32,355 nt of DNA. Origin: an uncultured virus (IMG/VR IMGVR_UViG_3300005440_000007) (taxonomy: Duplodnaviria > Heunggongvirae > Uroviricota > Caudoviricetes). A program made the translations under genes and the position numbers. The first letter of the stretch is position 1; every line of letters begins with the position of its first letter. The notes under the pieces were generated by a model. That model did not search any database. It saw only the letters and a list, made by a program, of their open reading frames with translations, and was not told the DNA's origin. Positions 23,235-32,311 of the stretch are shown piece after piece. The stretch lies in IMG/VR virus record IMGVR_UViG_3300005440_000007; one strand, given 5' to 3'.

Positions 23235-24056
23235 ATGCGCCCCTTCCTTGGTCGGGTTCCCCTAAGGGCTTCCGGATCTCGATCTCTTGGCCAGGTCGAA
23301 TTCACGGATCCGTGGGGCGGTTTTCATCGGGTTACCATAGAGCCCGCCCCCGTCCCGGAAGAGGTACCTCCCTTCAACGCCCCCTTTTCCGAGGAGTCGC
23401 GCTTGAGGGATCAGCGCGAAGAGTCCTATCGTCGAAAAATCGACGCGAAGAGGCGGGAGTGTGATTTCCTCGACAAGAATTCAGAGGACTACAGGGAGCA
23501 CTACGAAGGCCTGGAAGATCCGAGCGACGAGGACTACCAGGCTTACTCCCATTCGGTTGACGCCTACAACGAATGTCTCGACAAAATCGACGCGCTCATA
23601 GATGAGATGAACACTGCACCGGTGGATTTTGGCGTGACTCCTCAGGGCACCGGATATCAGTGGCCGCAGGAAGTTCCGGAGCCCACGGGCAGGCCTTTCG
23701 ATCCAGGAGAACAGCCCTACGTTCATCAGCCAGAAGATTATCCGCCCGTGCCATCCGTCGACTGGGAGTGGCCTGAAGAAGTTCCACAGCCGCCAGAAGT
23801 CGTTCCTGAACCCGAGCCGCCGGAGATCGTAGAGCAGCCCCCGACGACGGTTGCAAGCGTCGACTGGAGAACGAGCGGCTGCCCCGCAGGGACCCAGAGA
23901 CTGGTTCGTGGCGGGATGTGTGTCTCTTCGGGTCTCGTTTCGACGGCCTTCTCAATGCCGCAGACGACGGTCCCCCTTTCTACTCAAGCGATGACGACGC
24001 CTTCGTCGGCGTACCTCGGTCGCGTGCGTCTCGCGCAGCGTCCTGGCGCCTTCTAG
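23235..24056 (+). CDS. acidic Pro-rich protein with basic LG-motif termini
   Basis: MRPFLGRVPL..SRSLGQ, W(P/E)xEVP repeats, CPAG...C, AYLGRVRLAQ. Confidence 0.75.
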   Translation: MRPFLGRVPLRASGSRSLGQVEFTDPWGGFHRVTIEPAPVPEEVPPFNAPFSEESRLRDQREESYRRKIDAKRRECDFLDKNSEDYREHYEGLEDPSDEDYQAYSHSVDAYNECLDKIDALIDEMNTAPVDFGVTPQGTGYQWPQEVPEPTGRPFDPGEQPYVHQPEDYPPVPSVDWEWPEEVPQPPEVVPEPEPPEIVEQPPTTVASVDWRTSGCPAGTQRLVRGGMCVSSGLVSTAFSMPQTTVPLSTQAMTTPSSAYLGRVRLAQRPGAF

Positions 24057-24075
24057 AATCTCAATTTTTTTCCGC

Positions 24076-24104
24076 TTGACACCGAACCTTTCGGCGGCTA
24101 CGTT
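24076..24104 (+). promoter_or_regulatory. sigma70 promoter of the tRNA array leader
   Basis: TTGACA-17-TACGTT with an upstream T tract. Confidence 0.75.
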
Positions 24105-24145
24105 GTTCATGTAACAAGACCGCGAAACTAGGAGACGAACCTTCC

Positions 24146-24310
24146 GTGATGTCAAGACCCTGCGTCCGAGATCAAAGGCCAACGACGGGAGAGATCCTCC
24201 ATCGGCAGGCCTGGTCTCTGTTCGTGGGTTCGTATTCCCCGGCGACGAGCAACAAGCCCGCCGGGAATCGAACCATCGAACAGACGGGCGCGGGGGCGAT
24301 GGTCGAATGA
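24146..24310 (+). CDS. putative attenuator leader peptide sampling all 20 amino acids (not in ORF track)
   Basis: AGGAGA SD 24130-24135; GTG24146/ATG24149 to TGA24310; MSRPCVRDQRPTTGEILHRQAWSLFVGSYSPATSNKPAGNRTIEQTGAGAMVE. Confidence 0.7.
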   Translation: MMSRPCVRDQRPTTGEILHRQAWSLFVGSYSPATSNKPAGNRTIEQTGAGAMVE

Positions 24311-24347
24311 AGTAAAGCCCGGAGAAAAAAGACAACCCCCGCGCCCG
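24285..24347 (+). promoter_or_regulatory. antiterminator pairing
   Basis: CGGGCGCGGGGG (24285-24296) is the exact reverse complement of terminator 5' arm CCCCCGCGCCCG (24336-24347). Confidence 0.75.
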
Positions 24348-24368
24348 AAAGGACGCGGGGGTTTTTTT
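24334..24368 (+). terminator. intrinsic terminator (attenuator) upstream of the tRNA array
   Basis: AACCCCCGCG-CCCGAAAGGA-CGCGGGGGTT stem ending in a 7-T run (24362-24368). Confidence 0.85.
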
Positions 24369-24629
24369 GTTGTACCCACCGACCGGTGAAGGTCGGTGGG
24401 CGGATGCAAGGGACTCAGGACGCCATCGGCTTCGGCCGGGCCCCTGAGCCAGGAAGCCGCGGCGCGTTGGCGCGCGCCGCACTTGAAAATCGGGCTGGAA
24501 CGACAAAGATCGGAAGGGGAGGCCCATCCGGGAAGGGTGGGCCTCCCCGACCTCAATGCCAGGCCGCCATACGCTCAGGAATCGAGTATACGCGAGGGGG
24601 ACGAAATCTTCAAGCGCATGGCGCGCCTT

Positions 24630-24703
24630 CCGCCTGTAGCTCAACAGCAGAGCGTCTGGTTTCCACCCAGATGATGCCGGTGCGACTCCGGTCAGGCGGT
24701 CCA
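24630..24703 (+). tRNA. tRNA-Gly(TCC)
   Basis: cloverleaf, CCA end, T-loop TGCGACT. Confidence 0.9.
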
Positions 24704-24706
24704 TCT

Positions 24707-24781
24707 GCGGGCGTAGCGTAGGAGCAACGCGTCTCCTTCCCAAGGAGAAGATCGCGGGTGCAAGTCCCGCCGCCCGCTCCA
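24707..24781 (+). tRNA. tRNA-Gly(CCC)
   Basis: cloverleaf, CCA, T-loop TGCAAGT. Confidence 0.9.
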
Positions 24782-24782
24782 C

Positions 24783-24856
24783 ATGCCGGTGGTGTAGCAG
24801 CAGCATCGCTGTTTCCAAGTCAGCGGGTAGAGGTGCGACTCCTCTCCGGCATGCCA
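24783..24856 (+). tRNA. tRNA-Trp(CCA)
   Basis: cloverleaf, loop TTCCAAG, G73, CCA. Confidence 0.85.
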
Positions 24857-24867
24857 AAATTGAAAAC

Positions 24868-24943
24868 GCCTCTGTAGGGGAGTGGAGTCCCCGCCTCCCT
24901 GTCACGGAGGAGACCGTGGGTTCGAATCCCATCAGGGGCGCCA
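24868..24943 (+). tRNA. tRNA-Asp(GTC)
   Basis: canonical cloverleaf, G73, CCA. Confidence 0.95.
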
Positions 24944-24981
24944 AGCTTCGGGCGTGGTCGCTTGTGCGTGTCGCCCTTTAT

Positions 24982-25055
24982 TCCCACGTCGTCTAAAGGT
25001 AGGACTGCGGTCTCTGAATCCGCCAATCGTGGTTCGAGTCCACGCGTGGGAACCA
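24982..25055 (+). tRNA. tRNA-Gln(CTG)
   Basis: canonical cloverleaf, U1-A72, CCA. Confidence 0.93.
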
Positions 25056-25059
25056 AGCT

Positions 25060-25383
25060 TTAGAGGCCGAAGCGATCCTTGATTTCCCTCTCGAGGCGAC
25101 GATACGGGGTCGTTCCGTCGATCTGGTAGAACTTCTTCCCGTCCTTGAAAAAGACAAGGGCGGGGATCGACGCGATCTCGTATCTCTCGGTCGCTTTTGG
25201 CGCCTCGTCGATATCGGCGCCGACGATCAGGACTTGACCCTTGAGCTCCTGGGCGAGTCGCTCGATCACGGGCTTGGCGGCCTTGCAGCCCGGGCACCAG
25301 GTGGCCCAGAACTCGATGATCGCGAACGGAGCTTTCAGGGCTTCTTCGAAGTTCGCGTCGGTGACCTGCAGAAGTTCGTTCAT
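25060..25383 (-). CDS. trxA: thioredoxin
   Basis: VTDANFE, EFWATWCPGCK, YEIASIPALVFFKDGK; antisense inside the array. Confidence 0.92.
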   Translation of the reverse strand: MNELLQVTDANFEEALKAPFAIIEFWATWCPGCKAAKPVIERLAQELKGQVLIVGADIDEAPKATERYEIASIPALVFFKDGKKFYQIDGTTPYRRLEREIKDRFGL

Positions 25384-25473
25384 AAGTTCCCCCTTGCCGG
25401 GGAATTCTAGCCTATTTTTCATTCCCTGTCACATCCCTATTCGGAGGCGCGCGATACCTTCAGGAGGTACCGC

Positions 25474-25665
25474 ATGACGAATCGGGAGAAACTCATCCGA
25501 GGGATCACGGAGTACGGACGAACGATCCAGGTGGACGGATGGCAGGCGGGGGAAGCCGTCATCCGGAAATACGAATCCAGGATCCCGGACTTCAGGCGTT
25601 GGGCCTATGCCCTCGGGATCCTGCTCAGAGCGGAAGAATTACTCGCCGGTCTAGCTCAGCAGTAG
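25474..25665 (+). CDS. hypothetical protein; last codons overlap tRNA-Phe
   Basis: AGGAGG SD before ATG. Confidence 0.6.
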   Translation: MTNREKLIRGITEYGRTIQVDGWQAGEAVIRKYESRIPDFRRWAYALGILLRAEELLAGLAQQ

Positions 25666-25719
25666 AGCGCCCGTCTGAAAAGCGGGAGGCGTCCGGGGCA
25701 GCACCGGAGGCCGGCACCA
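25645..25719 (+). tRNA. tRNA-Phe(GAA)
   Basis: cloverleaf, CCA, T-loop GGCAGCA. Confidence 0.87.
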
Positions 25720-25793
25720 GGGTCCATCGTCTAGCAGGAGGACGCGAGCGTGGCACGCTCGAGGCGGGAGTGCGATTCTCCCTGGATCCACCA
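25720..25793 (+). tRNA. tRNA-Ala(GGC)
   Basis: cloverleaf with G3:U70, CCA. Confidence 0.9.
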
Positions 25794-25798
25794 AAGCT

Positions 25799-25876
25799 TG
25801 CAGAGGAGAGGCATCCGGTGACCTCGCTTGGCTCATAACCAAGAGCTTGCGGGTTCGAATCCCGCCTCTGCTACCA
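25799..25876 (+). tRNA. tRNA-Met(CAT), initiator-like
   Basis: 1:72 mismatch (U/U), CTCATAA loop, TTCGAAT, CCA. Confidence 0.87.
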
Positions 25877-25906
25877 ATCTTCGGGGCCAAAGGGTTATAA
25901 TCCTGC

Positions 25907-26488
25907 GTGCCCAAGTACACGGCCAACTGGTTCCCGGCGGACGTTTTCGTGAAGTTCTGCCCAGGCCTAAAGGGAAAACAGAATCTCAGGTTCCTCGAGA
26001 TCGGCGTCTTCGAAGGTCAGGGAACGAGGTTCTTTTTCGAGAAGCTTCTGGGGCCGACGGGGACCTTGGTCGGGATCGATCCATTCATCGAGTACTCCAA
26101 GTCGACGGTAGCGAAGATCCCTGGATTCGACCATCTCATGAATGGATCGGTAGAGGAGCGGTTCCGGTCCAACACGGCAGAATTCGCTGCAAGGATCACG
26201 ATCCACAAAGGCTTGAGCCAGAACGTCCTTCCCGGCCTTCCAAGCCAGAGCTTCGACCTTTCCTTCGTCGATGGGGATCACAGTCGGGACGCGGTCGCCT
26301 TCGACGCGCTCCACTCCATGAGGCTCGTCAAAAAGGGCGGCTACATCGTCTTCGACGACTACGGCTGGGGATACAAAGATCGTCCGGAGACGTGCCCTAA
26401 GCCGGCGATCGACAAGTTCCTCATGCAGTACTCCAAGCAGCTCAACGTCCTCTTCAAGCAGTGGTGCGTCGTAGTCCAGAAAAAGTGA
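25907..26488 (+). CDS. class I SAM-dependent methyltransferase (Methyltransf_24-like)
   Basis: FLEIGVFEG, GIDPF, FDLSFVDGDH, LVKKGGYIVFDDY. Confidence 0.88.
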   Translation: MPKYTANWFPADVFVKFCPGLKGKQNLRFLEIGVFEGQGTRFFFEKLLGPTGTLVGIDPFIEYSKSTVAKIPGFDHLMNGSVEERFRSNTAEFAARITIHKGLSQNVLPGLPSQSFDLSFVDGDHSRDAVAFDALHSMRLVKKGGYIVFDDYGWGYKDRPETCPKPAIDKFLMQYSKQLNVLFKQWCVVVQKK

Positions 26489-26498
26489 GATCATTCCA

Positions 26499-26573
26499 GG
26501 GCCCATAGCTCAACCAGAAGAGCAGCCGGTTCGCAATCGGCAGACGGCGGGGCAGCACCGCCTGGGTCCACCA
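26499..26573 (+). tRNA. tRNA-Ala(CGC)
   Basis: cloverleaf, G3:U70, T-loop GGCAGCA, CCA. Confidence 0.88.
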
Positions 26574-26575
26574 AC

Positions 26576-26651
26576 GGGTCCGTAGCTCAATCAGGAGAGC
26601 GCCTGCTTTGCAAGCAGGAGGCAGCGGGAGCAAAGCCCGCCGGATCCACCA
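26576..26651 (+). tRNA. tRNA-Ala(TGC)
   Basis: cloverleaf, G3:U70, T-loop AGCAAAG, CCA. Confidence 0.88.
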
Positions 26652-26659
26652 ATCTTCCA

Positions 26660-26752
26660 GGGCGCTGGTCCGCTCGGCGGTCTGTAAAACCGTTGTCCAA
26701 AAATAAGAGCGGCGGTCAAGGACGAGAGGTTCAACTCCTCCAGCTCCCACCA
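26660..26752 (+). tRNA. tRNA-Tyr(GTA), atypical (no D arm, enlarged variable region)
   Basis: GCGGT-CTGTAAA-ACCGT anticodon arm, GAGG-TTCAACT-CCTC T arm, A73-CCA. Confidence 0.7.
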
Positions 26753-26753
26753 T

Positions 26754-26832
26754 TGCCCGGCACTCTGTACTGGTATCGGAGCTCCGCCTTTGAAGCGGGT
26801 GGGTGAAGGTTCGATTCCTTCCCGGGCAACCA
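26754..26832 (+). tRNA. tRNA-Gln(TTG)
   Basis: cloverleaf, U1-A72, CCA. Confidence 0.88.
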
Positions 26833-26841
26833 GAAAAATTT

Positions 26842-26915
26842 CGGGGTGTAGCACAACGGTAGTGCGCCTCTTTGCCAAGGAGGAGACGCCGGTTCGACAC
26901 CGGTCACCCCGTCCA
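26842..26915 (+). tRNA. tRNA-Gly(GCC)
   Basis: cloverleaf, U73, CCA. Confidence 0.92.
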
Positions 26916-26939
26916 ATATTTGGGCTATACTTCTGTTGG

Positions 26940-27179
26940 ATGAAGATGTTCCTCGCCGCCGTCTTGGCCCTTTCAGGATGTGCGGCTCCGGCGGGGAACA
27001 CGATCGACGCCACGATCCGAAACGACACTCCTATCCCATTCGTGGTGAAGGTCTCGACTCCCTGGGGACAGACGAGCGTCGTCATCGCTCCCGGCACAAC
27101 CTGGTCGGGCCAGGTGGATCGGCGTATGATCCCATCTCGGGTCTCGCTCGTCGTTGAACTTCCTTCCGCGCAGAAGTAG
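26940..27179 (+). CDS. small lipoprotein
   Basis: MKMFLAAVLALSG-C lipobox; TATACT 8 nt upstream. Confidence 0.75.
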   Translation: MKMFLAAVLALSGCAAPAGNTIDATIRNDTPIPFVVKVSTPWGQTSVVIAPGTTWSGQVDRRMIPSRVSLVVELPSAQK

Positions 27180-27188
27180 CCCTCATTC

Positions 27189-27263
27189 CGGCGTGTAGCT
27201 CAAAAGTAAGAGCAGTCGGCCGATAACCGACAGACAGTGGAGCGTTACCACTCACGCCGACCA
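27189..27263 (+). tRNA. tRNA-Ile(GAT)
   Basis: cloverleaf, C33, T-loop AGCGTTA, CCA. Confidence 0.85.
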
Positions 27264-27269
27264 ATATTC

Positions 27270-27343
27270 GGGGCCAAAGTGTTGCGGCGGCACGGTCGGC
27301 TGTGACCCGGCCAGGGTGGGTTCGACTCCCACTGGTCCCTCCA
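27270..27343 (+). tRNA. tRNA-His(GTG)
   Basis: cloverleaf, CCA; lacks G-1:C73. Confidence 0.87.
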
Positions 27344-27364
27344 AGATTCGATGTACAATCTGGT

Positions 27365-27574
27365 ATGCCTCAGATCGAGCAGTCCTGGAGAAACGAAAGC
27401 CGGGCCTGGAGGTGGCTTTCCAGGATCCTGTGCTTCTTCGGACTTCATCACTGGGTCTGGAGCACCACGCTCAAGGCAGCAATCGCCTGCGCGGTGTGCC
27501 CGAAGAAGACGAAGCATTGGCAGGAGTATCGCCGCAGGTCGGCGGAGGGGATGAGAAGAAGCTTTGATCCATGA
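27365..27574 (+). CDS. small Cys/His protein
   Basis: LCFFGLHHW...CAVC; TACAAT 5 nt upstream. Confidence 0.55.
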   Translation: MPQIEQSWRNESRAWRWLSRILCFFGLHHWVWSTTLKAAIACAVCPKKTKHWQEYRRRSAEGMRRSFDP

Positions 27575-27648
27575 CGGGCTCAGGGGTAGACAGCGACCCG
27601 CCTGCTTGGGGTGCAGGAGTAAGCGCGGTGCAAGTCCGCGGAGCCCGA
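27575..27648 (+). tRNA. tRNA-Pro(GGG), CCA not encoded
   Basis: cloverleaf, C1-G72, A73. Confidence 0.85.
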
Positions 27649-27657
27649 TAAATTTGA

Positions 27658-27958
27658 GAAGCGTTCGGTCTGTTGGTGCAAGTCGAAGCGATCACGGCGC
27701 GAAACGACCCACGTAAGTCTCCATGTCCTCAAGCCGCCTCGGAGGACGAAGGAGTGGCAGGGCCTCCAGGTCCGCTATTCGACCACATGCCTTTTGGAGA
27801 TGATCATGGCCGGGCCGGGGAAGCGAAGAGCTTCCAAGATTTGTGTCAGTCCTGCCGCGAGAGCGAGAGACGCCATAAAGGGAGCGCGGGCTCTGAAGTA
27901 CCGGCTAAAGCGTCCAGCAGGCGAGTGTGGGGGCTAAACCAAGGTCAGCGAACGCTTC
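27658..27958 (+). ncRNA. raiA-motif-like structured ncRNA
   Basis: terminal stem GAAGCGTTCG/CGAACGCTTC; blocks AAGTCGA..AAACGACCCACGTAAG, AGTCCTGCCGC..GCGAGAG, CCAGCAGGCGAGTGTGGGG..AGGTCA match my recollection of the raiA motif in order (not checked against a model). Confidence 0.8.
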
Positions 27959-27962
27959 ACTT

Positions 27963-28036
27963 GGGCGCGTAGGATAACAGAAGACCGCCTGCGTGACATG
28001 CAGGAGGAGCTGGTGCGACTCCAGCCGTGCCCACCA
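27963..28036 (+). tRNA. tRNA-Val(GAC)
   Basis: cloverleaf with weak D stem, CCA. Confidence 0.85.
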
Positions 28037-28054
28037 ATTTTGTAAGATGATTCC

Positions 28055-28252
28055 ATGAGCCGAAAGGAAGAAATCCTCAGGAGAGCCGAAGAGCTCCGGC
28101 GCCAGGAGAAGACGTCGAGGAAACCTCCCGACAGCCCATACGATGGAAGAGGGATGGTGTCGCGAATGCCGCTCGGCTGCTGGATCTGGATCCTGGGGCT
28201 TGCAGCGCTCGTTCTTTACGCCTTCAGTCGGTTCGTCGTCGGTGTACACTGA
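28055..28252 (+). CDS. small single-TM protein
   Basis: charged N-terminus, C-terminal hydrophobic helix; TAAGAT 6 nt upstream. Confidence 0.6.
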   Translation: MSRKEEILRRAEELRRQEKTSRKPPDSPYDGRGMVSRMPLGCWIWILGLAALVLYAFSRFVVGVH

Positions 28253-28364
28253 AATCGACCGGATCACCTGGACCCCTAACTCTGGTGGCGGGGTTCGGGT
28301 CGGCAAGGATCGAGGGTGTGCGCCTTCGCGAGGGGCTGACCCGGACCCCGCTCCCGATTTTCCC

Positions 28365-28440
28365 GCCGGCGTAGTTTAGCAGCTCTGAATGCGGCATTGG
28401 TAATGCCGAGGTGCGGGGGCAGCACCCGCCGCCGGCTCCA
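28365..28440 (+). tRNA. tRNA-Thr(GGT)
   Basis: cloverleaf, T-loop GGCAGCA, CCA. Confidence 0.87.
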
Positions 28441-28506
28441 AAAATAAAAAAGCCCAGGCTACGCACCTGGGCCTCGGGCGGGTCTAGTGATCGGATTGTA
28501 GCACAT

Positions 28507-28581
28507 GCTGGCGTAGCTCAACAGCAGAGCCCCCGCCTTGTAAGCGGACAGATGCCGGTGCAAGACCGGTCGCCAGCTCCA
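28507..28581 (+). tRNA. tRNA-Thr(TGT)
   Basis: cloverleaf, CCA. Confidence 0.88.
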
Positions 28582-28657
28582 AAATAATAAAGCCCGGAGA
28601 AACAGGACTTCTGCCCTCCGGGCCATGTGCGGTATGTGTCAGAAAGATTCTACACGA

Positions 28658-28732
28658 GCCAGTCTCGTCCAACAAGAAGGACGTCGGTTTCATAAGCCGA
28701 AGATAGCGGGGCAGATCCGCTGGCTGGCACCA
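28658..28732 (+). tRNA. tRNA-Met(CAT), elongator-like
   Basis: cloverleaf, loop TTCATAA, T-loop GGCAGAT, CCA. Confidence 0.82.
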
Positions 28733-28738
28733 AAGCTT

Positions 28739-28830
28739 GGAGGGTTTGGTACATCGGCAGGTCCGCTCCGCTCGAACCGGAGTAGGTCTCGAAAGGGGCC
28801 TTGGGCGTTCAACTCGCCCACCCTCCTCCA
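28739..28830 (+). tRNA. tRNA-Ser(CGA)
   Basis: long variable arm, GGAG acceptor, CCA. Confidence 0.87.
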
Positions 28831-28908
28831 AAAAAATTCGAGCCCAGGCGAAGTGCCTGGGCTCGGGAGAGGGAAACGCCTTTCGAAGGCTGAGAAATTC
28901 TACCACAT

Positions 28909-28998
28909 GGAGACGAAGGCAGTCAGCGTGCCGCACCGGCTTGAACCCGGTTGCCCGGCTCGTCCGGGTCGCGCGTGCAACTCGCGCCGTCTCCTCCA
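28909..28998 (+). tRNA. tRNA-Ser(TGA)
   Basis: long variable arm, CCA. Confidence 0.87.
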
Positions 28999-29006
28999 AG
29001 TTTCAT

Positions 29007-29097
29007 GGAGGCGTTGGGCATAGGCAAGCCCACTTCGTTGGAAGCGAAGGGCCGACGATTCGTTGGCTTGCAGGTTCGACTCCTGCCGTCTCCGCCA
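29007..29097 (+). tRNA. tRNA-Ser(GGA)
   Basis: long variable arm, G73, CCA. Confidence 0.92.
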
Positions 29098-29098
29098 T

Positions 29099-29185
29099 GG
29101 AAGAGTACGGCTAATTGGTAAGCCACCGTGTTGCTAACGCGGCGCCCTCACAGGCTTGTGGGTTCGAGTCCCACCTCTTCCGCCA
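29099..29185 (+). tRNA. tRNA-Ser(GCT)
   Basis: long variable arm, G73, CCA. Confidence 0.93.
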
Positions 29186-29262
29186 ATCTTGAAAGTCACC
29201 AGTCGTTCGACCAGGCCAGGATAGCGTGCCCAGCACGACGGCTCTGGATCGGCGACGATCGG

Positions 29263-29337
29263 TGCGGGACAGAAGGCCGGGCCTCGACGGGTTTCATAAG
29301 CCTGTTACTGCGTGTTCAACTCACGGTCCCGCTACCA
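29263..29337 (+). tRNA. atypical tRNA with CAT anticodon (Met/fMet-like)
   Basis: T.GCGGGAC/GTCCCGC.T acceptor, tiny D loop, loop TTCATAA, 4-bp T stem with TTCAACT, CCA. Confidence 0.7.
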
Positions 29338-29338
29338 T

Positions 29339-29413
29339 GCACCGTTGGCGAAATGGGAACGCGGCCGCCTGCAAAGCGGTCATGACCGGGCTCGATCCCC
29401 GGACGGTGCTCCA
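29339..29413 (+). tRNA. tRNA-Cys(GCA)
   Basis: cloverleaf, U73, CCA. Confidence 0.88.
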
Positions 29414-29443
29414 AGCTTCTTCCATGATCGGATTGGGAGCGTT

Positions 29444-29737
29444 ATGATGACGCTCATGACAGCCAAGTTCGCGGCCAATCCATTCCAGGGCGTTTCGTTC
29501 GGCCTGGACCACTCCTTCATGTACCGCCAGGAGGATCCGGAGCACTGGATCGTCTACCAGAGGAAAGACGGCCTCATCGTCGCGTCCTTCGACGGAACCG
29601 AAGCATTTCCGGGAACATCCCAGAATCTCGATCAGTCGCAGAGAAAATTCTGGGCCCAGGAGCTCGCGTACCGGGAATGCATTCGGAGGAATTCCCCTGC
29701 GGCCCCGGATCTCGCGGCGATCGACACCACGCCATAG
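29444..29737 (+). CDS. hypothetical protein
   Basis: GGGAG SD; fills the gap between tRNAs. Confidence 0.6.
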   Translation: MMTLMTAKFAANPFQGVSFGLDHSFMYRQEDPEHWIVYQRKDGLIVASFDGTEAFPGTSQNLDQSQRKFWAQELAYRECIRRNSPAAPDLAAIDTTP

Positions 29738-29753
29738 CAGAAACTTCATCCAG

Positions 29754-29829
29754 GCCGGTGTAGCTCATTCAGCAGAGCGCCGAGTTCGTAACTCGGAGGC
29801 GGCGAGGGCAGAGCTCGCCACCGGCTCCA
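29754..29829 (+). tRNA. tRNA-Thr(CGT)
   Basis: cloverleaf, T-loop GGCAGAG, CCA. Confidence 0.87.
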
Positions 29830-29830
29830 T

Positions 29831-29905
29831 TCCGGGATCAGCTCAACGGTAAGCTGCTCGGTTGTTACCCGAGTCATGGGGGTTCGAATCCCTCTCCCGG
29901 AGCCA
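29831..29905 (+). tRNA. tRNA-Asn(GTT)
   Basis: cloverleaf, U1-A72, G73, CCA. Confidence 0.92.
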
Positions 29906-29910
29906 ATCTT

Positions 29911-29985
29911 GCCCCTGTCGCGTAACAGACAGCGCGCCGAGCTTCTACCTCGGAAGTGCGGGTGCAATTCCTGCCGGGGGTACCA
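29911..29985 (+). tRNA. tRNA-Arg(TCT)
   Basis: cloverleaf, CCA. Confidence 0.88.
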
Positions 29986-29986
29986 T

Positions 29987-30060
29987 GGCCTCATCGACTA
30001 TGAGTAGGTCGGCACCCTCTCAAGGTGCAGGAGCGAGTGCGAATCTCGCTGAGGCTACCA
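29987..30060 (+). tRNA. tRNA-Glu(CTC)
   Basis: cloverleaf, CCA. Confidence 0.9.
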
Positions 30061-30065
30061 ATCTT

Positions 30066-30140
30066 GGGCCGCTCGTCTACGAGTTAGGATCTCCGGTTTT
30101 CACCCGGAGGGACAGGGTGCGAGTCCCTGGCGGCCTGCCA
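30066..30140 (+). tRNA. tRNA-Glu(TTC)
   Basis: cloverleaf, CCA. Confidence 0.9.
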
Positions 30141-30143
30141 ATT

Positions 30144-30644
30144 TTAGCTGAAGATCGCGTAGAGCGCGGCCGCGATCCCGACGGCGCCAAGAGCGTATGG
30201 CGCAGCTTCTTCGATCGTCGTCTTCTTCTCCTCGCTTGCCTGGAACTCAAAGGCAGCTTCCGGAGGAGTGGTCGGCGGATAGTAGTAGATCGGCGGGTAG
30301 TACGGGAAGTAGTAGATCGGCGGCCGCGGGCGAGGCGGGCACGAGGCGGGTTCCTTCTTGTAGGTGATCGTCCCGTCCGGCTGCTTGCATTCGAAGAGCT
30401 GGAGGCAGGATCCGTTCTCCCTGAAGGGAACTCCGAGGCGCTTGCAGTCTGCTGGGGGAGGAGGGGGCGGAGGAAGCGGTTCCGGTTCAGGTTCCAGAGC
30501 GGGCTCCGGCGCGGGCTCGGGTTCCGGCATCGGTGCCGGTTCCGGAGGAAGCACGTCGGGGAGAGGGCCATTCTGGCCCATGCGGGCGCGCGTGAACGGG
30601 GATCCCTGGAACGGGAGCTGTCTCAAGAAGGTCTTCTGGAACAT
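30144..30644 (-). CDS. Pro-rich protein with C-terminal transmembrane anchor
   Basis: AAAGGAG SD; RARMGQNG, PEP repeats, 4-Cys mini domain, PPIYY repeats, terminal helix YALGAVGIAAALYAIFS. Confidence 0.8.
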   Translation of the reverse strand: MFQKTFLRQLPFQGSPFTRARMGQNGPLPDVLPPEPAPMPEPEPAPEPALEPEPEPLPPPPPPPADCKRLGVPFRENGSCLQLFECKQPDGTITYKKEPASCPPRPRPPIYYFPYYPPIYYYPPTTPPEAAFEFQASEEKKTTIEEAAPYALGAVGIAAALYAIFS

Positions 30645-30710
30645 TCCGCTCTCCTTTCGGGCTTCAGGAAGAATTATAGCCACAACCTGGCTTCTAAAAA
30701 ACAGAGATCT

Positions 30711-30784
30711 GCCTCCGTAGATCAACAGCAGATGACCCGGCTTTTACCCGGGGGATGAAGGTGCGAATCCTTCCGGAGGCACCA
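30711..30784 (+). tRNA. tRNA-Lys(TTT)
   Basis: cloverleaf, CCA. Confidence 0.9.
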
Positions 30785-30792
30785 GAAAATTC

Positions 30793-30866
30793 GGGAGCGT
30801 AGTTCAACAGCAGAAGACCCGGCTCTTACCCGGGGGATGAGGGTGCAACTCCCTCCGCTCCCACCA
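30793..30866 (+). tRNA. tRNA-Lys(CTT)
   Basis: cloverleaf, CCA. Confidence 0.9.
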
Positions 30867-30874
30867 AACTTCAA

Positions 30875-30951
30875 GCCGCCGTGGCGCAACCAGCAGACGC
30901 GCTCGTTTCAAAAACGAGATCTTGCGGGTGCGAGTCCCGCCGGCGGCACCA
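30875..30951 (+). tRNA. tRNA-Leu(CAA), short variable loop
   Basis: cloverleaf, A73, CCA. Confidence 0.88.
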
Positions 30952-30955
30952 TCCT

Positions 30956-31031
30956 GGGCCCGTGGCGGAACAGCATACGCGCTCGCCTTAGGAGCGAGAT
31001 TTTGGGGGTGCAAATCCCTCCGGGCCTACCA
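30956..31031 (+). tRNA. tRNA-Leu(TAG), short variable loop
   Basis: cloverleaf, A73, CCA. Confidence 0.88.
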
Positions 31032-31037
31032 AAATTC

Positions 31038-31114
31038 GCGGCTGTGATGCAACTGGCAGACATCTTCGGCTCAGAACCGGAGTCCTGGAGGTTCGAATCC
31101 TCTCGGCCGCACCA
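31038..31114 (+). tRNA. tRNA-Leu(CAG), short variable loop
   Basis: cloverleaf, A73, CCA. Confidence 0.9.
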
Positions 31115-31121
31115 AAGATTT

Positions 31122-31195
31122 GCCCCGCTATTTCAACAGTAGAATGCCTGTCTCACATACAGGTGATGGGGGTGCAACTCCCTCGCGGGGTACCA
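31122..31195 (+). tRNA. tRNA-Val(CAC)
   Basis: cloverleaf, CCA. Confidence 0.88.
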
Positions 31196-31334
31196 AAAAA
31201 TTTACGAGGCCGCGAAGATCTGGCGATCTCCGCGGCCTCAGGCAGGGACCCGTTGCCCCTCTCTCCGGGAACTGGGGAGAATATGTTGTCACCATGGATT
31301 CAGAATCGTGAAAAATGTTACTCGAAAAATATTT

Positions 31335-31412
31335 GCCCGTGTAGACCAACTGGCAGGAGTCACGACGCTGAGAACGTCGGTAGTGGAGGTTCGAATCCTC
31401 TCGCGGGCACCA
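31335..31412 (+). tRNA. tRNA-Leu(GAG), short variable loop
   Basis: cloverleaf, A73, CCA. Confidence 0.9.
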
Positions 31413-31420
31413 AACTTCAT

Positions 31421-31497
31421 CGGGGCGTAGGGTAGCGGCTTAACCCGCCTGTTTCGGATACAGGAAATCGCGTGTTCAAATCACGCCGCCCCGACCA
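31421..31497 (+). tRNA. tRNA-Pro(CGG)
   Basis: cloverleaf, C1-G72, CCA. Confidence 0.93.
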
Positions 31498-31545
31498 TTT
31501 TTTTTGATTCTTGAAAGCCTTCAGATACCGTGATAGGCTTGAGCT

Positions 31546-32127
31546 GTGTTCGAGCCTATCTTTCCGGGGGCCACAATTCCTATCCGTTCAGTAATTCTTG
31601 GCCAATCGGATCCACGCGATCCAGAGTATTGGCGAAAAGCTCTGGAGAGATTTAAGGAAGATAAAAAGGAACTGGAGGAATTCTACGGGCCTAGAAGCCC
31701 GGAGCAAGAAAAGCTGCTTGAGTATTACCGCGATATGATACCCAGGGTAGAATCATTTCTTCAGACCGGATGGTGGCCTCCATTTCCAGGGACACCCGGC
31801 CGTAGCAAGGCTCTTCCTGGCGGTGGAGTTCTGATGCTACCTCCATTTGAGTCGCTCACGGCTCCTGAAACTCCTCCACCTCCCCCTCCACCACTGCCTG
31901 TGCCTAGCGGTGGGATAACCAGGAGAGGAATAATAGATCGGCCGGACGTTGCCACGACTATGTGTCCTCAGGGGCAATTCTGGGACGGCCAGAGATGTCG
32001 TGGAAGCGTTTCGTCATTCGGTGCCTTTGGTGGGCTTGCCCTTCAGCCTGGCGGCGGTGCAACAACGTTCACCATGGGTAGTATTCCGCTTGTCCGCGGC
32101 ATTGGCACCCGTGCGCTTGGCTTGTAG
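31546..32127 (+). CDS. Pro-rich hypothetical protein with LG-motif leader
   Basis: TTGAAA-17-TAGGCT 6 nt before GTG; RSVILGQ, poly-Pro, CPQGQFWDGQRC; architecture like ORF 23235. Confidence 0.7.
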   Translation: MFEPIFPGATIPIRSVILGQSDPRDPEYWRKALERFKEDKKELEEFYGPRSPEQEKLLEYYRDMIPRVESFLQTGWWPPFPGTPGRSKALPGGGVLMLPPFESLTAPETPPPPPPPLPVPSGGITRRGIIDRPDVATTMCPQGQFWDGQRCRGSVSSFGAFGGLALQPGGGATTFTMGSIPLVRGIGTRALGL

Positions 32128-32151
32128 ACGGTAGAAACGTCAAATCTTCTC

Positions 32152-32227
32152 GGGCCGTTAGCTCAACGGCAAAGAGCGAGCGTCTCATAAACGCCTGACG
32201 CGAGATCGACACTCGCACGGCCCACCA
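32152..32227 (+). tRNA. tRNA with CAT anticodon, probably Ile2 (lysidine type)
   Basis: GGGCC acceptor, CTCATAA loop, T-loop ATCGACA, CCA; Ile2 versus Met is inferred. Confidence 0.8.
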
Positions 32228-32235
32228 AACATCAA

Positions 32236-32311
32236 CAGGCTCAAGGGTAGATAGCGACCCGCCTGCCTTGGAAGCAGGAGCAGCGGCGTGCAAGTCGCCG
32301 GAGCCTGACCA
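32236..32311 (+). tRNA. tRNA-Pro(TGG)
   Basis: cloverleaf, C1-G72, CCA. Confidence 0.88.

Follow-up and report, generated by a model that had tools for sequence, protein, structure and literature searches.

Transcription attenuators of the trp, his, thr and ilv type are built from four RNA segments that pair as 1:2, 2:3 or 3:4, with the leader peptide's stop codon at a position where segment 2 is blocked by a ribosome that terminates there, and T-box riboswitches report tRNA status through a choice between antiterminator and terminator. The leader of the bmrBCD operon of Bacillus subtilis carries an open reading frame (ORF) of 53 amino acids, bmrB, with a GTG start; slowing of its translation by any ribosome-targeting drug leads to more read-through, and basal read-through is tuned by codon content, no run of a single codon being present (PMC4191407). 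Similarly, the account of the upstream ORF (uORF) of whiB7 in mycobacteria describes stalling that results in antitermination and is activated by the loss of many amino acids, tRNAs and tRNA synthetases, and a uORF sequence that drifts while its composition is kept (PMC10274678). Here, we analyze a leader in a 32,355-nucleotide (nt) stretch of DNA from an uncultured virus of the Caudoviricetes (IMG/VR IMGVR_UViG_3300005440_000007; the whole stretch is referred to as the window), which precedes a large array of tRNA genes and may well be a ribosome-coupled transcription attenuator that heads a phage tRNA operon and senses the general rate of elongation.

Phage tRNA genes are regarded as a means of supplying codons and of countering host defences that cleave tRNA, and almost nothing is known of their control. 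Literature searches revealed no paper on the attenuation of tRNA arrays or on leader peptides before them. Feedback from decoding speed, a logic established for bmrCD, whiB7 and amino-acid operons, was found in no paper on tRNA genes, and would act on them here if the leader frame is translated. The locus has a promoter-proximal ORF with a ribosome-binding site and a start codon, a terminator before the genes, an antiterminator and an anti-antiterminator. With bmrB it shares a 53-codon leader with a GTG start and without a single-codon run, whereas the bmrB terminator lies inside the coding region and the ORF found here ends 25 nt ahead of the hairpin; moreover, bmrB controls a bacterial ABC transporter rather than phage tRNA genes, and the two are likened by description and not by sequence. 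The whiB7 uORF is enriched in alanine and has a transcription factor as its target, while the phage leader uses all 20 amino acids evenly and precedes tRNA genes. The trp/his-type leaders span 14-32 codons, in contrast to the 53 codons of the phage leader, which also differs from them in having segment 1 at codons 5-8 and two large hairpins inside the ORF.

Several known classes of control were considered for the locus. An amino-acid attenuator of the trp/his type was rejected, as no codon run exists and 34 distinct codons occur among the first 36. A search with the covariance models of Rfam 15 over 24000-24640 returned no cis-regulatory family at the gathering score; on the leader, the Thr, His and Leu leader models scored 16-23 bits against cut-offs of 49-55 (the best being Thr_leader, with 23.5 against 55). 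Likewise, the T-box had no Rfam match over this interval, and no specifier-loop architecture was identified. The long L-array of trn genes in Anabaena is kept silent, is induced by translational stress and is controlled by the repressor TrcR (PMC8421152; PMC10272220), which acts on direct repeats that cover the -10 box and the transcription start site (PMC8421152). The available text of the TrcR paper contains none of the terms 'attenuat', 'terminator' or 'leader' (PMC8421152). Control of the TrcR type was discarded here, as the published repeat signature had 0 matches in the window at up to one mismatch, and the palindrome in the promoter spacer is a different one.

The promoter, the Shine-Dalgarno (SD) sequence, the ORF of 53 or 54 codons and the terminator that had been read from the letters alone in an earlier note (the original prediction) were all found where it had placed them (Table 1). 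The terminator hairpin alone (24334-24363) has a folding energy of -23.6 kcal/mol and is followed by seven T at 24362-24368. Segment 2 (24285-24296) is the exact 12-nt reverse complement of 24336-24347, as had been claimed, and has no other exact copies in the window; among 20,000 shuffles of the upstream leader, one gave a 12-nt match, and a chance origin of the complementarity is unlikely. Segment 2 pairs with segment 3, the 5' arm of the terminator, hence antiterminator and terminator are mutually exclusive. The two-state model of the original prediction holds in its competing helices and is incomplete in its number of elements, as a fourth segment, segment 1 (24158-24168), pairs with 24285-24295 of segment 2 to form a helix, P1, that encloses hairpins A and B in a three-way junction. 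The duplex energies of the four pairings are similar, with -22.8 kcal/mol for 1:2, -29.7 for 2:3 (12 bp), -21.8 for 3:4 and -22.7 for 1:4. When prefixes of the leader are folded, P1 is held up to 24340 and is replaced by the antiterminator at 24348 (-101.0 versus -89.3 kcal/mol), and the full leader has two near-isoenergetic folds, namely P1 with the terminator (-114.8 kcal/mol) and the antiterminator with 1:4 (-118.1 kcal/mol), with a fold z-score of -5.8. The terminator/antiterminator switch itself is well supported, because a static fold needs no 3:4 complementarity and a plain terminator needs neither segment 1 nor segment 2. An invariant UGGU lies 3' of segment 2. Hairpin B was also examined as a tRNA remnant, an idea that was dropped as relaxed ARAGORN finds no tRNA there.

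Table 1. Leader and tRNA array features by position in the window.
Feature	Position	Strand	Description
Sigma-70-like promoter	24076-24104	+	TTGACA 24076-24081, 17-nt spacer, TACGTT 24099-24104
SD-like AGGAGA	24130-24135	+	11 nt before GTG, 14 nt before ATG
Leader ORF	24146-24310	+	GTG 24146 / ATG 24149, 53-54 codons, stop TGA 24308-24310
Segment 1, anti-antiterminator strand CCCTGCGTCCG	24158-24168 (codons 5-8)	+	partner is segment 2 (P1) or, in the read-through fold, segment 4
Hairpin A	24169-24217	+	within the ORF
Hairpin B	24218-24283	+	within the ORF; arms T-arm-like
Segment 2, switch strand CGGGCGCGGGGG	24285-24296	+	partner is segment 1 or segment 3
A-rich variable linker	24311-24333	+	loop of the antiterminator
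Intrinsic terminator	24334-24368	+	segment 3 24336-24347, GAAA loop, segment 4 24351-24361, T7
Post-terminator leader	24369-24629	+	five conserved hairpins up to the first tRNA
tRNA array	24630-32311	+	40 tRNA genes, raiA-motif RNA, embedded protein genes; runs past the window end

On the attenuator reading, the nascent RNA would first form P1 around hairpins A and B, and once segment 3 has been made, segment 2 could pair with it instead, so that segment 4 could not complete the terminator. A ribosome starting at GTG 24146 would melt P1 together with both hairpins. If it kept pace with the polymerase, it would come to rest on the stop codon, which lies 12 nt beyond segment 2, and would cover the 3' half of segment 2, an extent of masking that we take from the size of the ribosome footprint, so that the terminator would form and the array would stay off. 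A ribosome that lagged or stalled anywhere in the 53 codons would leave segment 2 free with P1 disrupted, the antiterminator would form and the polymerase would enter the tRNA genes, whereas without any ribosome segment 2 may stay bound in P1, in favour of termination. Slow decoding, be it through tRNA loss, starvation or antibiotics, would hence raise the output of phage tRNAs. We infer the translation of the leader, its coupling to transcription and the direction of the response, while the four segments, the two folds and their conservation, and the kept SD, start, frame and stop are observed.

Related leaders were reached through the adjoining upstream gene, which encodes a 273-aa protein with 16 homologues; an alignment of 11 of these led to 15 metagenome loci, 14 of which align to the leader. 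The set compared below consists of the window and 11 of the 14 loci, three loci with 100% identity (L064, L065, L067) being left out, and its 12 leaders represent 7 ORF haplotypes. The leaders are 91-100% identical, and the adjoining upstream protein is only 50-81% identical. Along the locus, identity to two relatives (L071 and L073) amounts to 78-81% in the protein gene, 96% in the promoter region with an identical core, 79-80% in the 5' untranslated region (UTR), 90-91% in the ORF part, 54% in the linker, 100% in the terminator, 92-93% in the post-terminator leader and mostly 97-100% in the tRNAs (71% for a tRNA-Gln and 88% for a tRNA-Met), as compared to 40-70% in neutral spacers. Linker identity to relatives overall is 54-69%, and the terminator is identical in all 11 leaders that are long enough to reach it. 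Segment 1 is paired in 100% of cells in the alignment (7/7 sequences), as are 98.4% of the cells of the 26 pairs of hairpin B. The one-sided changes in hairpin A preserve its pairs, and a C-to-T change with a 3-nt deletion gives a perfect 7-bp hairpin in six of the 12 leaders; the variable positions are those of the junction strand 24281-24283 and of the apical loops. In all nine related loci with downstream sequence, the same tRNA array follows the leader. One relative, L075, has an upstream protein of only 50% identity next to a leader of 94%, and joins the 5' part of one leader type to the linker of another, a mosaic that points to recombination inside the module of leader and array.

Translation of the ORF is suggested only by indirect signals, namely a frame-specific codon bias and a kept frame and stop. 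In 12/12 leaders, the distance from segment 2 to the stop codon is 12 nt, across four different linker sequences, one of which has a 2-nt deletion that is offset by a new TAA, and the frame is open in all 12, the 3-nt deletion found in six being in frame. GTG 24146, the conserved start, is invariant in all 12 leaders, as is the SD region, AAGGAGACG. A conserved short ORF had been proposed as a check on homologous leaders, and SD, in-frame start, open frame and stop are indeed all kept throughout. The mean logarithm of relative synonymous codon usage (lnRSCU) is 0.152 in frame 0, compared to 0.183 (sd 0.114) in genes, -0.009 in frame 1 and -0.040 in frame 2, and the frame-0 value is matched by only 3.5% of 2,720 noncoding structured windows; GC content at the third codon position (GC3) is 0.72, versus 0.57 at positions 1 and 2. 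A more distant 53-aa homologue, P0018, shares 61-67% identity and keeps the frame through three indels, with the limit that it came from a protein search and is biased toward kept frames. As for transcription, contigs from the RNA libraries of two studies span the T-tract (X16, 24331-24490, with 0 differences; X20, 24218-24444, with 11 differences and 6 gaps), which is a weak hint that read-through RNA exists, as such libraries may contain DNA. The matches are contigs and hence uninformative on transcript starts, ends and levels, and the lack of contig cover over 23800-24111 and most tRNAs proves nothing; another contig (X15, 24199-24398) was not counted as bridging, as only 30 of its letters lie past the T-tract.

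A number of observations weigh against an attenuator driven by leader translation. ATG 24149, from which the original prediction had counted codons, is lost in 7/12 leaders, and the retained GTG lies at a long distance of 11 nt from the SD; the few clear SDs of this phage lie 7-9 nt from the start, in a survey that is rough because start calls were taken from the longest ORF. All three forward frames are free of stops over 24149-24307, and an open frame is therefore weak evidence. The ratio pN/pS is 0.7-1.2 with synonymous sites conserved like the others, so that conservation is at the RNA level, which an untranslated structured RNA would explain. Two further relatives of the peptide, P0017 and P0020, are known only as pieces of 40-42 aa that begin at an internal Met and are without the N-terminus, and the ORF is rarely called by gene callers, with two clusters among 5.8 billion proteins, both from an internal ATG. 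The covarying antiterminator and terminator arms that had been anticipated were not seen, as none of the 79 and 83 pairs in the leader helices has a compensatory change; covariation is missing because the arms never vary, and the structure therefore rests on conservation and energy. A ribosome stalled in the middle of the ORF would leave segment 1 free, and P1 might re-form around it; the model further assumes transcription-translation coupling in the host.

These points bear on what else the leader could be. It is possible, if on balance unlikely, that it is a ribosome-independent RNA switch, with an incidental ORF and a junction of P1 and the two hairpins that binds a ligand, a tRNA or a protein. 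P1, which closes the junction and has a 3' strand common to the antiterminator, gives the layout of a transcriptional riboswitch; the conservation at nucleotide level extends to all codon positions, the stems of the hairpins hardly vary, every forward frame is open in any case, and the invariant UGGU after segment 2 could pair with the 3' end of a tRNA, a pairing that we liken, by assumption, to that in T-boxes. However, no Rfam family was found at the gathering score and the matches by E-value cover the terminator only, the variable sites fall on the junction strand and in the apical loops, which aptamers usually conserve, and such a switch leaves the frame-0 codon bias and diversity, the invariant SD and GTG and the fixed stop unexplained. 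The ORF could instead encode a functional phage protein of 53-54 aa, the terminator merely ending its gene, and the SD, the start codon and the phage-like codon usage would fit this; we consider it very improbable in view of the pN/pS, of the lack of any Pfam or PHROG match for the ORF, and of a search of 1.84 billion representatives that yielded three matches, two to the same leader and one of low complexity.

The leader might also lack regulation altogether and be a gene for a stable structured small RNA, or a bidirectional terminator that insulates the array and would end both upstream transcripts and the antisense transcript of a minus-strand thioredoxin-like gene, in which case the complementarities would belong to one static fold. 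The minimum free energy (MFE) structure of the whole leader is indeed one nested fold whose ends are paired (1:4, 2:3 and the 5' UTR with the U-tract), and other noncoding RNAs such as raiA are carried in the array. An A-tract upstream and a T-tract downstream make the hairpin a terminator on both strands, the linker serving on the minus strand as its T-tract and being listed as a minus-strand terminator-like site, and the downstream minus-strand gene has a promoter-like site of its own. Yet four pairings at similar energies point to a switch, as a static fold or a plain terminator needs fewer, the A-tract sits in the least conserved part (54%), and RNA-library contigs span the T-tract, albeit as weak evidence; an unregulated leader thus appears improbable to us. 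Of the readings considered, we regard the ribosome-coupled attenuator as the most likely.

As a sub-case of the attenuator reading, the leader ORF might have been selected to sample nearly the whole repertoire of codons and amino acids, and would then serve as a pan-tRNA homeostat or as a counter to host tRNA-cleaving defences; we hold this pan-codon design to be doubtful. If it were true, a shortage of almost any tRNA, the phage's own included, would slow the ribosome and switch on a near-complete tRNA set, and yet the sensing of almost any codon would already follow from the geometry of the leader. The counts behind this idea were reproduced. The first 36 codons from the ATG hold 34 distinct codons, ACG being the sole repeat, and all 20 amino acids, the last one being reached at codon 36, and the 39 distinct codons among 53 reduce to 36 classes when three NNY pairs used twice are merged; the hand estimate of about 27 under uniform use of 61 codons compares with a computed 27.4 (sd 2.0). 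The last 17 codons bring only five new ones. Of 32,384 stop-free 36-codon windows in six frames, four have at least 34 distinct codons, all in the frame of this leader, 13 have all 20 amino acids and one has both; by forward frame, the leader has 34, 25 and 25 distinct codons, and the maximum in frame in real phage genes is 30 per 36. With uniform codon use, 34/36 has a probability of 5e-4; with codons drawn at the phage's own frequencies, the comparison with the element's codon usage that had been suggested, it is 5e-6. All 20 amino-acid types are retained in the seven ORF haplotypes, which have 38-39 distinct codons each, and in the distant P0018. The single Trp is lost in P0018 and the single His in P0020, and each reappears elsewhere in the peptide; because the loss of His in P0020 also restores a base pair of hairpin A, RNA structure explains part of the His pattern.

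Counting against the pan-codon design, the limit of 36 codons was set post hoc, the high diversity continues into in-frame triplets that are not translated (24110-24217 also has 34), relatives reach 32-33 distinct codons of 36, not 34, and 4.6% of noncoding structured windows attain 39/53. In addition, six of the seven singleton residues sit in invariant stems, and no tRNA-Tyr was found in the ~9.4 kb of array examined. Viewed as a whole, the original interpretation is supported in part.

The promoter core (24076-24104) is unchanged in 12/12 leaders; its -10 element has only three of six consensus bases, which is why the promoter is absent from the listing of the promoter scan. Transcription would begin near 24111, and a contig (X17) starts at 24112, near this predicted start site, in a run that is probably DNA. 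A palindrome, CCGAA-CCT-TTCGG, lies inside the promoter spacer (24082-24094), and a near copy of it, CGAACCTTCCG, is found 53 bp downstream between the SD and the GTG (24136-24146); the two could be operator sites. The direct repeat CGAACCTT(T/C)CG at 24083 and 24136 was not retained as a signal, since a two-copy 11-mer is close to chance level and the second copy is weaker in 7/12 leaders.

The window, with ~60% GC, encodes a Gp88-family protein, a HerA/terminase-like ATPase, ThyX, thymidylate kinase, a PolX-like protein and a PAPS-reductase-like protein, and most likely derives from a large uncultured soil phage. It was found to resemble no cultured phage: INPHARED phages gave only single-tRNA matches and nothing similar to a neighbouring 456-aa protein. 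Scans of IMG/VR with the upstream protein and with the leader-peptide alignment revealed no relatives, and exact DNA patterns of the leader had no match in IMG/VR or in species genomes. The PAPS-reductase-like neighbour led to 59 loci, of which the first 22 were scanned for tRNAs and none had an array; the HerA-like protein led to one locus, in an 84-kb record with three tRNAs and no array, and the methyltransferase of the array to two distant loci.

Within the window, 40 tRNA genes were found (34 by ARAGORN and six by Rfam only), rather than the 42 counted in the original prediction. Beyond the window end, in the continuation of its contig (L065, 19079-19667), tRNA-Arg genes with the anticodons CCT, GCG, TCG and CCG follow, and all Arg codon boxes are served because the Arg tRNAs continue past this end. 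The Rfam-only tRNAs (25645-25716, 26499-26570, 26576-26648, 27189-27260, 28365-28437 and 28658-28729) were missed by default ARAGORN, and several have an unusual, GGGGCAGCACC-like T-loop instead of TTCRA; their anticodons were read by eye as Phe GAA, Ala CGC and Thr GGT, and by relaxed ARAGORN as Ala TGC, Ile GAT and a CAT. The post-terminator leader has no Rfam family match over 24369-24629, is 92-98% identical to relatives and has compensatory changes in 3/90 predicted pairs.

Further elements are embedded in the array. A thioredoxin-domain ORF (PHROG 22, E 1.6e-9) lies on the minus strand at 25060-25422, with a promoter-like site at 25432-25404, and a Methyltransf_24 gene lies on the plus strand at 25907-26488, in a segment (~25875-26498) that is missing from L071 and L073. 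Three strong hairpins resembling minus-strand terminators with T-tracts occur in array spacers at 31240-31205, 28865-28839 and 28475-28449, and would keep antisense transcription out of the tRNA genes. The available part of the raiA paper does not mention copies in phages or tRNA arrays (PMC10861870). Between tRNA-Pro and tRNA-Val, a raiA-motif RNA (RF03072) is found on the plus strand at 27659-27957 with a score of 101.4 bits (cut-off 101.3; E 2e-24), and it occupies the same place in the four relatives that were scanned (L066, 5183-5481; L071, 3535-3833; L077, 3738-4036; L063, 4567-4865).

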